A DNA stretch of 64,000 nt, from contig JAVKEN010000012.1 in NCBI GenBank assembly GCA_040221415.1, positions 2,198 through 66,197 on the forward strand. The letters run 5' to 3'. Made by a program: the position numbers and the translations under genes. Position 1 is the stretch's first letter; each line of letters opens with the position of its first letter. The notes below the pieces were generated by a model. It ran no database searches and had not been told where the DNA came from. It saw only the letters and a program-made list of their open reading frames with translations. Below are positions 46,852 to 52,203 of the stretch, piece after piece. Source of the stretch: Rickettsiales bacterium (lineage in GTDB: Bacteria; Pseudomonadota; Alphaproteobacteria; Rickettsiales; JABSSG01).

Positions 46852-47988
46852 TTAACTTTCTTGACTAGCTAGGTTATAGCGTATTTTAAATCCTGAAACA
46901 TCCAAATTTTCTAACGCCTTTTGTATTTGGTTATTGTAGTTTGTTTGTATCCAATTTTTTACAAACTTACTATCACATGTTACAGAAAAGATATTATTTG
47001 TGTAATCAATATATGGTTTTGTTCTAGTTAGCCACGAAACAAAAGTTCCCTTGCCTAACAACTCACTAAGCAACAAATAAACTTCTTTTTCCTTTCCGTT
47101 TAATGAATTCAGAAATAACTCAGAGTTGTCATTTATAGATTTTGCAACGTTATCTGCATTCTCAACAGTTTCTTCTTTTCTAGCAGAATAAGCACCTTCT
47201 AAAACTTTTTTAATGTTTTCTTCCCTAGTTAACCAATCAAAATGAACTTTAAAACTAGTTACCTTACCCATTAAAAACCCACTATTTGCTATTAGTTCCA
47301 AAAATTCTTTCCATTTTTGTCTATCACAATTGAAATTATTTTTTAGAATCTGAGTAAAGGTTTCCCTTCTTTTTTTATCAAGATGAACAGGTTTGTATGT
47401 ATTATTAGGATTTATGATGTCTTCATAATCTTGTAAAAAATCACTCAAATTATTTTCTGAGTTAGTATGTGTAGTATTCTCTGTAGTATTCTCTGTATCC
47501 CTATTATATGTTCTGTTCACTTTGAACACTTGTGAATGATCAATATGCATATTTGAACTGCTCACTCTGGACAAGTCGATTTGTTCAATTTGAGTAACCG
47601 ATTTGTTCATTTTGGACTTCTCGATGTGTTCATTATGAACAGGTGAGTCTGACAATAAATCTAGCTGCTCTAGTGCATCATAATTGATAGAATACCACTT
47701 TGTTTGGTCAAAGCCTTTTATTACTCTATTAGTAGATAGCAAAAGATTATTTTCTTCTAAATTCTTTATAGTTCTTCTTAAAGTGCTTTTTGACCAAAAA
47801 GGAAATTGGGAAAGCCATTTATCTAAAGTGTTGTATACCCAGAATTTGCCATTAATGTAATTTTTATTGATTCTTGGGTCGATCCAATAATGGACCTGTT
47901 GTAATAATATAGCTTCATTCAACCCTATTTTAACTGCAAGGGTTGGCAAAACCATCAACGGGTTTTCATTGATTAACAATTTAGACAT
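46852..47988 (-). CDS. Plasmid replication initiator candidate (wHTH N-terminal domain, DnaA_N-like C-terminus)
   Basis: The N-terminus 'ILLQQVHYWI...WSKSTLRRTIKNLEENNLLLS' is a winged-HTH replisome-organiser pattern. The C-terminus 'FVKNWIQTNYNNQIQKALENL' resembles DnaA domain I. The gene is divergent from parAB. Confidence 0.6.
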   Translation of the reverse strand: MSKLLINENPLMVLPTLAVKIGLNEAILLQQVHYWIDPRINKNYINGKFWVYNTLDKWLSQFPFWSKSTLRRTIKNLEENNLLLSTNRVIKGFDQTKWYSINYDALEQLDLLSDSPVHNEHIEKSKMNKSVTQIEQIDLSRVSSSNMHIDHSQVFKVNRTYNRDTENTTENTTHTNSENNLSDFLQDYEDIINPNNTYKPVHLDKKRRETFTQILKNNFNCDRQKWKEFLELIANSGFLMGKVTSFKVHFDWLTREENIKKVLEGAYSARKEETVENADNVAKSINDNSELFLNSLNGKEKEVYLLLSELLGKGTFVSWLTRTKPYIDYTNNIFSVTCDSKFVKNWIQTNYNNQIQKALENLDVSGFKIRYNLASQES

Positions 47989-48276
47989 TACTAATTTTTT
48001 ACATAATTCAAAACTAGGCGCAAAAACACTAAAATTATTGACAATGCATCTGAATATGTATTAGTATATAACCAATTGCGAAACATAAACAGGTGCGTAA
48101 ACTTTAGGGTTTGCGCCCTTTTTTTATTTATAAACATAATTCTATAACAAAAGAAACACCCTTTGCAACAAAAAAGTTGTCTTTTTCTGTTTTTTTGTTG
48201 CGCAACCAAATAATGTGTGATTAATATATAATTAAGTTAAAACAAAATATAACAAATTTATCTATTAAGAAGGGTT

Positions 48277-49266
48277 ATGCGAAATTTAGATGCGAGGTTT
48301 AATTTTAATATGTCACAAATGGCATATTTATTAGATATGGATAAATCTAGGGTCTCTAGGTTCATAAGTGAAAACAAGATTGAGGCAGCTGAAATCTATA
48401 GTAATAGGAGGAAAAAGTTTAGTATTGATACTATGAGAGCCATAGGCGCCCATAAATTTGAATCATTTAAGCCTATAAAAGAAAAAATCAATGTATTTTA
48501 TAATTTTAAAGGTGGCACTGGCAAAACAAGTATTTGTAATCAAGTCTCTTTTCATCTTTGTTTGCTTGGATTTAATGTTTTAGTAATAGATACTGATGCA
48601 CAGGCTCATCTTACGAAAAGCGTCGGATTTGATGAATATAATGATTTTGATACGCTGTATGATGTTTTGGTTAACAACGTTGATTTAAAATCGACTATTC
48701 ATAAAGTTTATCCAGGATTTGATTTTATTCCCTCTAATTTATCAATGACTAAAATAGATCCTCAATTATCAACTCGCAACAATAGGGAAAAAATTCTCCG
48801 TAAGCAGCTTGAGCAAGTGAGGGATGAGTATGATTACATTATAATAGACACAAATCCCACAATCAGTGTTTTAAATTTTAATGCAGCTTTTGCAGCAGAA
48901 AGACTCAATATAGTTTGTGAAACTCAGCCTTATAGTTTACAGGGGTTAGACATGCTAATCACAGAGCTAACCAAATTCTCTAAAGACATGGAGTATAAAG
49001 ATATAAACTATGGAATTATACCCAATAAATACGAGTCTAAAGTAGTAACTTCTCAGGAGGCTCTAGGTAAAATAAGAGCTGACTATAAAGAAAAGTCTAT
49101 GGAATCTGTTATTCGTAGAAGTGAGGAAATGAATATATCAGCAAAAGAAGCTGTGCCAGTGCAAGTTTCTGCTAAAATCCCCTCCCCTGCTGTAGAAGAC
49201 ATAAAAGACCTGACTTTCGAATTAATTGAAAAAACATCAGGCAAGCAAATTGAAGGTATTAAATGA
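48277..49266 (+). CDS. parA: ParA partition ATPase (type Ia, with N-terminal HTH extension)
   Basis: The deviant Walker A 'FKGGTGKTS' and 'IIIDTNP' are present. The ~75 aa N-terminal extension 'MSQMAYLLDMDKSRVSRFI' is HTH-like. Confidence 0.9.
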   Translation: MRNLDARFNFNMSQMAYLLDMDKSRVSRFISENKIEAAEIYSNRRKKFSIDTMRAIGAHKFESFKPIKEKINVFYNFKGGTGKTSICNQVSFHLCLLGFNVLVIDTDAQAHLTKSVGFDEYNDFDTLYDVLVNNVDLKSTIHKVYPGFDFIPSNLSMTKIDPQLSTRNNREKILRKQLEQVRDEYDYIIIDTNPTISVLNFNAAFAAERLNIVCETQPYSLQGLDMLITELTKFSKDMEYKDINYGIIPNKYESKVVTSQEALGKIRADYKEKSMESVIRRSEEMNISAKEAVPVQVSAKIPSPAVEDIKDLTFELIEKTSGKQIEGIK

Positions 49267-50099
49267 AAATTGACCAAGCTAAAATAAGATATCCCGAGAA
49301 GAAAAAAGAGATGTCTCAAATTAAAACCACTAGAGCTAGTATATTTACAGAGAATTATCGAGAAGAAATACTCAATATTCCAATTCAGAAGTTATTTCCT
49401 TACTCTAAACAAGCTAGACAGAGTTTTGATGAAGAATCATTACAAAACCTAGCGCAAACAATCAAAAGCCATGGAATACGTCAGCCACTAACAGTTGTTG
49501 ATATTGAAGGTAATGGTGAAAAATATGAAGTTGTCAGCGGAGAAAGAAGGCTGAGAGCTGCCAAATTAGCAGGATTAGATAGAGTTCCTTGTAGAGTGCT
49601 TAAAAGCCCCAAGGATGCAGTGGAAATAGCTATTATTGAGAATTTGCAAAGAGAAGACTTGCACCCTATTGAAGTTGCGAGATCCTTGCAGTCCCTTCTA
49701 GATGAAGGAATTTGCCGCGACCAAAAAGAGATATCTGAAAAAGTTGGGATGCCAAAATCTACAGTCTCAGAATTACTATCTTTCTTAAAAATATCCCCGA
49801 AATTTTACAAAGATATCATAAATAATAAAATTCAAGCAAGGGAAAGCTTGCGCTCTATAAGAGACGCCTCTTCAGATGAAGAGAGGATGAAGTTGTTGCA
49901 GAGTAACACGCCCTCCCCTCCTCCTCTTAAAAAAGTTGAATCAGCAAACAAATCTTCTACTTCTGTTGTTAAAACTAGAAAGGTTCTATCTGTCACTTTA
50001 GAGAATGGAAATTTGAAATTTGATGTAAAAGTAAGCAAGCTTACCGAAGATCAAAAAAAACAAATTTTGAACAGAATTGAAAAAGTTTTGTTTAGATAA
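49263..50099 (+). CDS. parB: ParB/Spo0J-family partition protein
   Basis: Contains 'GIRQPLTVV...YEVVSGERRLRAAKLAGLDRVPC' (ParB box) and an HTH 'QKEISEKVGMPKSTVSELLSF'. Its junction with parA is an ATGA overlap. Confidence 0.9.
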   Translation: MKIDQAKIRYPEKKKEMSQIKTTRASIFTENYREEILNIPIQKLFPYSKQARQSFDEESLQNLAQTIKSHGIRQPLTVVDIEGNGEKYEVVSGERRLRAAKLAGLDRVPCRVLKSPKDAVEIAIIENLQREDLHPIEVARSLQSLLDEGICRDQKEISEKVGMPKSTVSELLSFLKISPKFYKDIINNKIQARESLRSIRDASSDEERMKLLQSNTPSPPPLKKVESANKSSTSVVKTRKVLSVTLENGNLKFDVKVSKLTEDQKKQILNRIEKVLFR

Positions 50100-51290
50100 A
50101 AAGCTGCAAAAACTGTGTAATCGTTGTTTATCAACGGTCCGCCGCGGCGAACCACTATATCATGAGCTATAAAACAAGCTCCTATATATTAAAAAAGATA
50201 GCGTGTTACAGGGTTTTATTGCAGGCGGTAGCGGCGTCTACCAAGTGTATCGTTATATCAAACTCAATATAGTTTTCTTAAGTGAGTAGATAATATTTGG
50301 GCAAATGAGCTGCTATATAGGTAGCTATGCATCTTCTTTTGAATTTAAATCGGCTCCCACACCTCTATATTTATTAAAAAACCTACTGTCCTTTTATCTA
50401 GTTTTTATGATGAGAAGTTTCTAGTCTTATATCTAAATACAATTATTCATACAGACCATGATAAATAATCCAAAATACAAAGCTTACCCTCTGTGATTCA
50501 GATAAACAAACGGTTCGCCGTGGCGAACTGCTGCATCACAAACTATAAAATACGCTCCATGCATATTGAGAAAATAGTGTATCGTAGCATTTAATTGTAT
50601 TTTTGGGAGCTTCTGATAAGTGTAAGATTGTATTAAAAAAATTTACTTTCTCATAAGTTAACAGAGGCTATTTAAAGAAAATCATTAGCTACTAATCTTT
50701 AGTTATGTTTTTTCTGTTGAATTGAACTCATTCCCCTACCCGCCTTTGTATTAAGTTTAGATATAAAAATAATTTGTTATCTAATATCTACATAATTAGT
50801 TTCTTGCTGTATCTCTCTATATATAATTCTTTATACAGCATGATAAAAGATCAGAAGTACAGAGCTCCCCCTCTGTAATCTAGCTAAACTAACGGTTCGC
50901 CGCGGCGAACTGCTACATCATCAGCCATAAAACAAGCTTAAACATATTAAAAAAATAGCGTGTTGCAGGGTTCTATTGCAGGCATTAGCAGTGCTACTAA
51001 GTGGATAATTATATTAAAACGCAATTAGGCTTTCTCTTAAGCGAGCAGACGCTATTTAGGAAAATGAGTTAATATATTGGCAGCTATTCTTCTTCTCAAT
51101 TTATATCGCCCTACCCTCACCTCCGTATTTATTTAAAGTTCTACTGTCCTTTTATCTAGTTTTTATAATGAGAAGTTTCTAGTCTTATATCTAAATACAA
51201 TTATTCATACAGACCGTGATAAATAATCCAAAATACAAAGCTTACCCTCTGTGATTCAGTTAAACCAACGGTTCGCCGTGGCGAACTGAA
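50100..51290. repeat. Array of four ~376-382 bp direct repeats in two alternating subtypes, each with a GC-rich 16-17 bp palindrome
   Basis: The palindromes are GGTCCGCCGCGGCGAACC (50136-50153), GGTTCGCCGTGGCGAAC (50512-50528), GGTTCGCCGCGGCGAAC (50894-50910) and GGTTCGCCGTGGCGAAC (51270-51286). Long near-identical stretches are visible, for example 50383-50535 vs 51140-51290. No ORF of 60 aa or more is present. Confidence 0.9.
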
Positions 51291-51384: not shown

Positions 51385-52203
51385 TTGATATTAAGAGAGA
51401 AGTATATGATAATAAATATAGATACTAATAATAAAAGGTGCATAGTGGCTGAGGACGAGCAAAGTTTATCAAAGGGATATTTAAGCAAAAGAGGGCGCAA
51501 TAGATTTACTCAGAGAGAAGGGCGTATAGGTGACTTATCATCAGCTAGTTTTACTGAAGACTCAGATCAAGGTGCGTCTGAAGAAAAAAGAGAAAGAATT
51601 CAGGGTGAATTACGTGATTTGATGAGAGAATTAGCCCTAGCAATAGCAACTGGTAACTTTGATAAGGTTCGAAGACTAAAAAGTTTTATTGAGGGGATCT
51701 TCAATGAAGCTCATGAGCTTGGAATATCCATCAAAGACATACAGGATGTTATTAGAGAAATTGAAAGCGTTGAAGCTAAACAAATAGCTGAGCAGTCTCT
51801 AGAGTCAGCAATAGAAAATGATTTAGCTTGGTTTAAATCTATTGAAGAGACAGCATATAGCTTGTCAAAAGACATTGATTCTTTCATAACTCCTGCAGTT
51901 ACAGAGCAACTTAATGAGTATACAGAAAGATTAGATAGGGGAGGGGACTTAACTGAAGATGAGGCTAGAGAATTTGTAGATACCCATTTATCGCCACCAA
52001 GATTTGATGAACATGTACGTTTAATTCAAGAGAACAGTAGATTAATTGATGAACATATCGAGCGAAGGAACACGCTTATTAAAGTACATGGCGAATCTCA
52101 TGAGGCCGTCAAAAGTTTTGATGAAAAGACTAAAGAATCTGTAAAACAACTAGCTGCTAATAATAAAAAGGTAAAAACACATATGAAGCTGTTAGAGATG
52201 TAA
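51385..52203 (+). CDS. Acidic coiled-coil-like hypothetical protein
   Basis: The tracked start is a TTG. The ATG at 51406 ('MIINIDTNNK') is more likely. The protein is rich in E/D/K/R heptad-like segments. No family recognised. Confidence 0.5.
   Translation: MILREKYMIINIDTNNKRCIVAEDEQSLSKGYLSKRGRNRFTQREGRIGDLSSASFTEDSDQGASEEKRERIQGELRDLMRELALAIATGNFDKVRRLKSFIEGIFNEAHELGISIKDIQDVIREIESVEAKQIAEQSLESAIENDLAWFKSIEETAYSLSKDIDSFITPAVTEQLNEYTERLDRGGDLTEDEAREFVDTHLSPPRFDEHVRLIQENSRLIDEHIERRNTLIKVHGESHEAVKSFDEKTKESVKQLAANNKKVKTHMKLLEM

Follow-up and report, generated by a model that had tools for sequence, protein, structure and literature searches.

Organization of the par locus

The window analyzed in this study comprises 64,000 nucleotides (positions 2198-66197 of contig C12) from a Rickettsiales genome of 1.39 Mb, which is assembled into 26 contigs and has a GC content of 35%. 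Its contig carries an F-type conjugation block, including a TrwC relaxase (22486-25263), a TraD-type coupling protein, TraG_N and TraC, and the relatives that appear in protein matches are named Rickettsiales, Rickettsiaceae, Megaera, Bandiella and Arcanobacter. The end of contig C4, read as its reverse complement, matches the first 141 nt of C12 exactly, indicating that a repeat is located at the contig ends.

The maintenance module of this replicon consists of a candidate replication initiator, parA and parB, arranged in the order rep-parA-parB. The initiator candidate is a protein of 378 amino acids with a C-terminal DnaA_N domain (Pfam, 4.8e-07), which corresponds to the 'DnaA-like' protein of Rickettsiales plasmids and is encoded on the minus strand (46852..47988), divergently from parA. 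The same layout is found in L027 and L028, the two loci most closely related to that in the window, and in the Megaera plasmid CP113871.1. The parA gene (48277..49266, plus strand) encodes a Walker-type partition ATPase of 329 amino acids (Pfam AAA_31, 8.9e-42; CbiA) with an N-terminal extension of ~70 residues. Its best NCBIfam match is RepA (TIGR03453), although the score of 81.5 bits falls far short of the cut-off of 348; with SopA, it scores 47.8 bits where 725 would be required. Its nearest solved structures are those of ParA/Soj.

The adjacent parB gene (49263..50099, plus strand) encodes a chromosomal-type, Spo0J/Noc-like protein of 278 amino acids (Pfam ParB_N, 1.1e-23; HTH_ParB, 5.1e-10), which combines a helix-turn-helix (HTH) domain with the GERRxR motif of the CTP-binding box, here in the form GERRLRA. 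It scores 125 bits with the NCBIfam model parB_part, and both this model and Noc score higher than RepB (TIGR03454), for which its 49.1 bits lie far below the cut-off of 201.5. Among relatives of known structure, Spo0J (1vz0, 6e-31) is the best match, and Noc, 4umk, 6t1f and Caulobacter ParB are also close. Across 20 homologues, there is no variation at residues S92, G93, E94, R95, R96 and A99 and little at R98 (at least 90% identical); A6 and K7 close to the N terminus are invariant as well. When repC was sought downstream of parB, the next gene (51385-52203) turned out to have no Pfam match, and the initiator candidate of the module is the DnaA_N protein upstream of parA.

A tandem array with four palindromic sites

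The gene-free spacer of 1.28 kb downstream of parB contains four 16-bp palindromes of the form GTTCGCCGYGGCGAAC, which start at positions 50137, 50513, 50895 and 51271. The resulting spacings of 376, 382 and 376 nt bear out the repeat distances given in the original prediction. The first of these predicted parS sites, parS1 (50137..50152), has the sequence GTCCGCCGCGGCGAAC, with one mismatch between its arms, whereas parS2 (50513..50528) and parS4 (51271..51286) share the sequence GTTCGCCGTGGCGAAC, with a C/T asymmetry at the center, and parS3 (50895..50910) is a perfect palindrome, GTTCGCCGCGGCGAAC. The sites thus lie in cis beside parAB, starting 38 to 1172 nt past the parB stop codon. The original prediction had correctly recognized a sequence shared by all four units and the perfect 16-bp symmetry of the third copy; its reading of the first copy as GGTTCGCC has to be corrected to GGTCCGCC..., and the third copy occupies positions 50895-50910 instead of 50894-50910.

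Shuffled sequences are expected to contain no match to the palindrome, as opposed to the four observed. A search of the 1.39-Mb genome for additional copies, which had been proposed along with the original prediction, likewise revealed none outside the array. The 8-mer half-site occurs 11 times genome-wide, compared to ~9 occurrences expected from base composition; five of the 11 fall inside the array, and there is no excess elsewhere. The description of the region as a GC island applies to the 16-mers, whose GC content is 75%, but not to the array as a whole, which at 33.9% GC is close to the plasmid (33.6%).

The palindromes are embedded in an array (50113-51288) of 3.2 tandem units of ~378 bp. 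Although Tandem Repeats Finder did not report any repeat in the array, a repeat search combined with MAFFT showed that the three full units can be aligned end to end. The first and third units, U1 (type A; 50113..50488) and U3 (type A'; 50871..51246), are 83% identical to each other, whereas the intervening unit U2 (type B; 50489..50870), an old and diverged copy, shares 62% identity with U1 and 62-64% with U1 and U3 overall. The array therefore has a super-period of 758 bp, in agreement with the two alternating subtypes that had been predicted. A terminal partial unit (51247..51288) comprises the upstream flank and parS4. Homology between the units starts 14 nt past the parB stop codon and ends 2 nt past the fourth palindrome, so that the array is bracketed by a site at each end.

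The degree of conservation varies along the units. In comparisons involving U2, the 20-nt window that holds the palindrome is identical at 18-19 of 20 positions, its immediate flanks at 13-15 and the remainder at about 10-13. Homology is thus not limited to the ~150 bp around each palindrome, as had been suggested, but spans the whole unit, with the palindrome-holding 20 nt standing out. Between the old copies, conservation is somewhat better over ~20-40 nt to each side of the palindrome and at the 3' end of the unit, and the last ~80 aligned positions of U1 and U3 (about 51170-51246 in U3) differ by a single base. Another recurring element is a C-rich box (CCCCTACCC-like), found ~160 nt upstream of each of parS2 to parS4 (50354-50365, about 50733-50745 and 51109-51124). 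Similar boxes are located 60-110 nt upstream of the sites in L027 (3633, 4240 and 4440) and L028 (6866). However, the 1.39-Mb genome contains 426 such boxes (0.3 per kb), so that they may carry no meaning, and we set them aside as a second motif of the units.

Conservation of the site in homologous par loci

The comparison included 31 loci with parB homologues, among them that of the window (199 kb in all), which were obtained from related genomes (L025 and L026), a protein collection (L027 and L028), species genomes (L029-L032) and metagenomes (L109-L130). The ParB profile search of the contigs from species genomes mostly recovered the chromosomal ParB of Bacteroidota, together with four useful plasmid-type loci. 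Of the 31 loci, 27 have palindromes of the class NN[T/C]CGC-N4-GCG[A/G]NN either within the par locus or next to it. In 20 loci, a site is found 0-250 nt past the parB stop codon, often at a distance of just 2-15 nt; sites also recur about 250 nt ahead of the parB stop codon and at the parA-parB junction, with further sites inside parB and upstream of parA. Both the class of site and its position are thus kept together with this ParB family. The outer bases of the arms vary between plasmids, and they do so symmetrically, yielding the pairs GTTCGC/GCGAAC, GGTCGC/GCGACC, TGTCGC/GCGACA, TATCGC/GCGATA and ATCCGC/GCGGAT, with many sites being palindromic through the center. Symmetric arms combined with central palindromy are the signature expected of a protein dimer reading double-stranded DNA rather than that of an RNA hairpin.

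The closest relative, L027, whose ParB is 69% identical to that encoded in the window, has three copies of the identical 16-mer (at +250, +852 and +1062), whose flanks are unrelated, and a BLAST comparison of the array with the region downstream of parB in L027 detected no similarity apart from the palindrome. In the next closest relative, L028 (57%), the site GTCCGCCGTGGCGGAC is located 68 nt past the stop codon, and its half-site corresponds to the odd left arm of parS1. Three or four sites are also found in L027, L120, L128 and L127, where they are irregularly spaced, at distances of 164-1220 nt, and not associated with long repeat units. The central sequence CCGTGG, in place of CCGCGG, is seen at positions 50513-50528 and 51271-51286 of the window and recurs in L027 (3741), L028 (6926), L112 (3400) and L197 (3263). 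Since this asymmetry is shared by several independent plasmids, the center of the site seems to be free to vary or prone to C-to-T changes.

The site class extends to named endosymbiont plasmids. The plasmid CP113871.1 of Candidatus Megaera polyxenophila, which encodes a DnaA-like protein, ParA and ParB, carries AGTTCGCGGCCGCGAACT 11 nt past the parB stop codon. In plasmid p_B of Candidatus Cardinium (CP101108.1; L197), sites flank parAB, with GTTCGCCGTGGCGAAC, the sequence of parS2 and parS4, located 74 nt upstream of parA (3263) and GTTCGCCATGGCGAAC located 3 nt past the parB stop codon (5113). The host of this plasmid is an endosymbiont from the Bacteroidota, and stretches of its parAB genes are about 76% identical in DNA to those in the window. 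The shared 16-mer and the similarity of the parAB stretches point to an exchange of the partition module between endosymbionts of different phyla. A single perfect copy of GTTCGCCGCGGCGAAC was also detected in each of three genomes from another genus in the order (L193, L194 and L195). The chromosomal surroundings of these copies are orthologous to one another and coding-like, neither ParA nor ParB nor Rep is encoded in the vicinity, and we judged the copies to be due to chance.

The chromosome, by comparison, has three perfect copies of the canonical parS motif, TGTTTCACGTGAAACA, at positions 51734, 93917 and 137787 of contig C1, the second of which is located about 1.4 kb upstream of the chromosomal parB gene (C1:95315-95986). 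Because the chromosome keeps its own canonical parS near its own parB, the plasmid site most likely constitutes a separate specificity, as expected for two replicons that segregate independently.

A candidate parS centromere and its relation to known systems

Collectively, these findings make it very likely that the four palindromes form the parS centromere of a conjugative Rickettsiales plasmid and serve as binding sites for the adjacent ParB. This conclusion is based on the presence of the same palindrome class at the same place in divergent par loci, the symmetric changes in its arms and its match to the published alphaproteobacterial consensus. The multi-site parS put forward in the original prediction has thus gained strong support from the comparison with other par loci. 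A parS array by itself is the expected arrangement at this position and an ordinary type of element.

The consensus reported for the parS sites of alphaproteobacterial repABC replicons is GTTNNCNGCNGNNAAC (Cevallos et al., as quoted in PMC9040568). Sites 2-4 of the array fit this sequence at all fixed positions, whereas site 1 deviates at position 3 (GTC). However, ParA and ParB are not RepA/RepB equivalogs, so that the match to the repABC consensus could be convergent, and the operon lacks repC. The closest functional analogue is the 3parS locus of the Paracoccus aminophilus megaplasmid pAMI4, which binds RepB in electrophoretic mobility shift assays, is needed for plasmid stability and the formation of RepB foci, and exerts incompatibility (PMC9040568). 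Like 3parS and related repABC multi-parS loci, the array is a long gene-free locus with several 16-bp palindromes that fit GTTNNCNGCNGNNAAC and show local similarity around the sites; in our case, four sites are contained in a non-coding spacer of 1.28 kb. As with 3parS, the replicon belongs to an alphaproteobacterial host. The two loci differ in that 3parS is located 11.5 kb from the operon and is AT-rich, whereas the array starts 14 nt past the parB stop codon, is not enriched in AT relative to its plasmid (33.9% vs 33.6% GC) and holds its four sites in true tandem units of 378 bp. Moreover, unlike in pAMI4, the operon itself does not contain an additional site, the predicted partners are a Spo0J/Noc-like ParB and a short ParA instead of RepA and RepB, and the initiator candidate is a DnaA_N-domain protein instead of RepC. 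The array may thus work like a repABC or 3parS centromere but within a distinct ParB plasmid family of Rickettsiales and other endosymbionts. As argued by the authors of the pAMI4 study for multiple sites, additional sites for the loading of ParB may be favored.

Similarities also exist to other partition systems. The chromosomal ParB-parS systems, represented by Spo0J and Caulobacter ParB with the site TGTTTCACGTGAAACA, are nearest in terms of ParB fold and motifs, and they share the 16-bp palindrome, the GTT..AAC-type arms and the common clustering of sites; the array differs from them in the sequence and register of its sites and in belonging to a plasmid-borne system. The sopC centromere of the F plasmid is made up of 12 tandem 43-bp units, each of which has one inverted repeat that is bound by an HTH protein of the ParB family. 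Like sopC and P1 parS, which are centromeres of type Ia partition systems, the array is located directly downstream of a parB-like gene, and with sopC it also shares the tandem organization with one inverted repeat per unit. However, its units, at ~378 bp x 3.2 compared to 43 bp x 12, are nine times longer, the 329-residue ParA is much shorter than SopA or P1 ParA and has a low SopA score, and ParB is nearer to chromosomal ParB than to SopB, which sets the array apart from tandem centromeres of the sopC type. The sopC centromere is mentioned in PMC3597684.

The similarity of the partner protein to Spo0J suggests how the array may act. ParB-family proteins load onto parS as clamps in a CTP-gated manner and then slide, and a basic N-terminal peptide stimulates ParA. 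By analogy, dimers of the Spo0J-like ParB would recognize each of the 16-bp sites through their HTH domain; with CTP bound in the GERRxRA pocket, they would close to form a clamp and slide onto the flanking DNA, while their basic N-terminal peptide would stimulate ParA. The four loading sites, situated within 1.15 kb, would together build one partition complex, and ParA-ATP on the nucleoid would then move this complex such as to deliver the plasmid to each daughter cell. Because the plasmid site differs from the canonical parS of the chromosome, plasmid and chromosome would be segregated independently. The array should, in addition, exert incompatibility.

In the literature on DnaA-like/ParA/ParB plasmids of Rickettsiales and other endosymbionts, our search did not find a description of a partition site, and the literal palindrome sequences were in no relevant paper that it retrieved. 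For pRM, the centromere and its binding protein were stated to be unknown in work on Rickettsia shuttle vectors (PMC9004397). With the array, DnaA-like/ParA/ParB plasmids from Rickettsiales and other endosymbionts, such as Megaera, Paracaedibacter-like bacteria and Cardinium, gain a concrete candidate for their centromere. A defined parS, whose core is TCGC-N4-GCGA and whose outer bases vary, could inform the construction of stable vectors for bacteria that are hard to manipulate, help to predict plasmid incompatibility groups from sequence and flag plasmid contigs in metagenomes.

Origin of the repeat units and alternative functions

While the palindromes can be explained as ParB loading sites, the long units in which they reside are probably not functional in themselves. 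They show no similarity to L027, related loci with several sites lack long units, the array contains one DnaA-box-like 9-mer, and the sites themselves form the boundaries of the units. The latter observation fits with unequal recombination between neighboring sites, of which the 378-bp units are most likely by-products. An older duplication may have given rise to the A and B units, and A' may have been generated later, either when the 758-bp A-B pair was duplicated or through gene conversion. Selection thus appears to be visible mainly on the palindrome.

ParB binding alone gives no account of the even spacing of 376-382 bp, the better-kept flanks of 20-40 nt and the C-rich boxes. In one conceivable scenario, each unit would be a functional centromere module in which parS is accompanied by a C-rich box and a flanking site for bending or an accessory factor, with the even spacing folding the four ParB loading sites into one higher-order partition complex, or the array would additionally serve the DnaA_N initiator as an origin or in copy control; we consider this scenario quite unlikely. 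In a related view, each unit would carry more than parS, for instance a small RNA, a promoter that ParB silences or a site for bending or an accessory protein, and the spacing would be selected for folding of the complex or regulation of the downstream gene cluster. The flanks and the 3' end of the units, which are identical at 13-15 of 20 positions between the old copies, compared to about 10-12 elsewhere, would fit with this idea, as would the C-rich boxes ~160 nt upstream of the sites and their counterparts in L027 and L028, and additional roles were also suspected for 3parS by the authors of the pAMI4 study. However, the flanks are not conserved in the relatives, the C-rich boxes are common throughout the genome, and the near-identity of A and A' at their 3' ends looks like recent conversion and not like selection. 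Moreover, promoter-like matches in the array do not exceed those in shuffled sequences (18 vs 15.5), no short open reading frame is kept between the units, and an Rfam search of the 47-53 kb region at a permissive threshold returned no family match. Such additional functions are therefore very unlikely.

Alternatively, the array could be, or contain, a replication origin or copy-control iterons, with its units bound by the divergently encoded DnaA_N initiator. The gene-free stretch of 1.28 kb adjoins the rep-parAB module, the cumulative GC skew has its minimum at about 47-50 kb, and the origin of DnaA-like plasmids in Rickettsiales has only been guessed from skew (PMC1800911). However, the skew minimum coincides with a switch in gene orientation and therefore does not provide a precise origin position. 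The 378-bp units are, in addition, not iteron-sized, and we found no iteron-sized repeats in the array beyond the palindromes and only one DnaA-box-like 9-mer instead of a cluster. No unit sequence is detectable in L027, and in L026 and L196 a single palindrome directly abuts the next gene, leaving no room for an origin there. With its units unconserved, the rep-parA spacer conserved and a single DnaA-box-like 9-mer, we rejected the array as an element whose main function is that of an origin, and we regard an origin or iterons within it as highly improbable. That the palindromes are RNA hairpins, acting as terminators or attenuators of parAB rather than as protein-binding DNA, is practically untenable, even though the first site lies just 38 nt past the parB stop codon (2-15 nt in many relatives) and a scan flagged terminator-like signals on the minus strand at sites 2-4, since there is no T-run after the sites on the parAB strand, which led us to reject the terminator reading, the minus-strand matches face genes that are transcribed away, relatives have the palindrome inside parB, at the parA-parB junction or upstream of parA, and a hairpin would need neither perfect central symmetry nor invariant TCGC/GCGA arms.

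Thus, the suggestion that the units also act as an origin, as incompatibility determinants other than parS or as small RNAs did not find support, as the unit sequences have no detectable counterpart in L027 and lack a conserved open reading frame, an Rfam match or a cluster of DnaA boxes. Even when taken together, the origin, small-RNA and accessory-site ideas remain unlikely. The conservation of non-coding DNA with the relatives instead falls on the rep-parA spacer (47989..48276), which is 82% identical to that of L027 and 73% identical to that of L028. Judged by this pattern, the spacer is a likelier seat than the array of an operator and perhaps of the origin. Its invariant blocks comprise a TTGACA promoter-like site at 48038, a hairpin formed by GCGTAAAC..GGGTTTGCGC that is followed by a run of seven T residues (48095-48126) and the 10-bp palindrome GTTGCGCAAC (48197-48206), all of which are candidates for a par operator, a regulatory RNA or terminator, or an origin.

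Variation in the ParB recognition helix

Returning to the reading of the palindromes as parS sites, the variable outer bases of the arms can be compared with the HTH domain of the cognate ParB. Among 26 homologues, residue 169 of the recognition helix (S169 in the sequence KSTVSELL, encoded at 49767-49769 in the window) is a serine in combination with T or A at site position 2 and a valine, isoleucine, threonine or asparagine in combination with G. All comparisons agree in direction, with 2-4 independent contrasts only, so that the association is not significant. The sister pairs L025/L026 and L127/L126 both switch residue 169 and site position 2 together.
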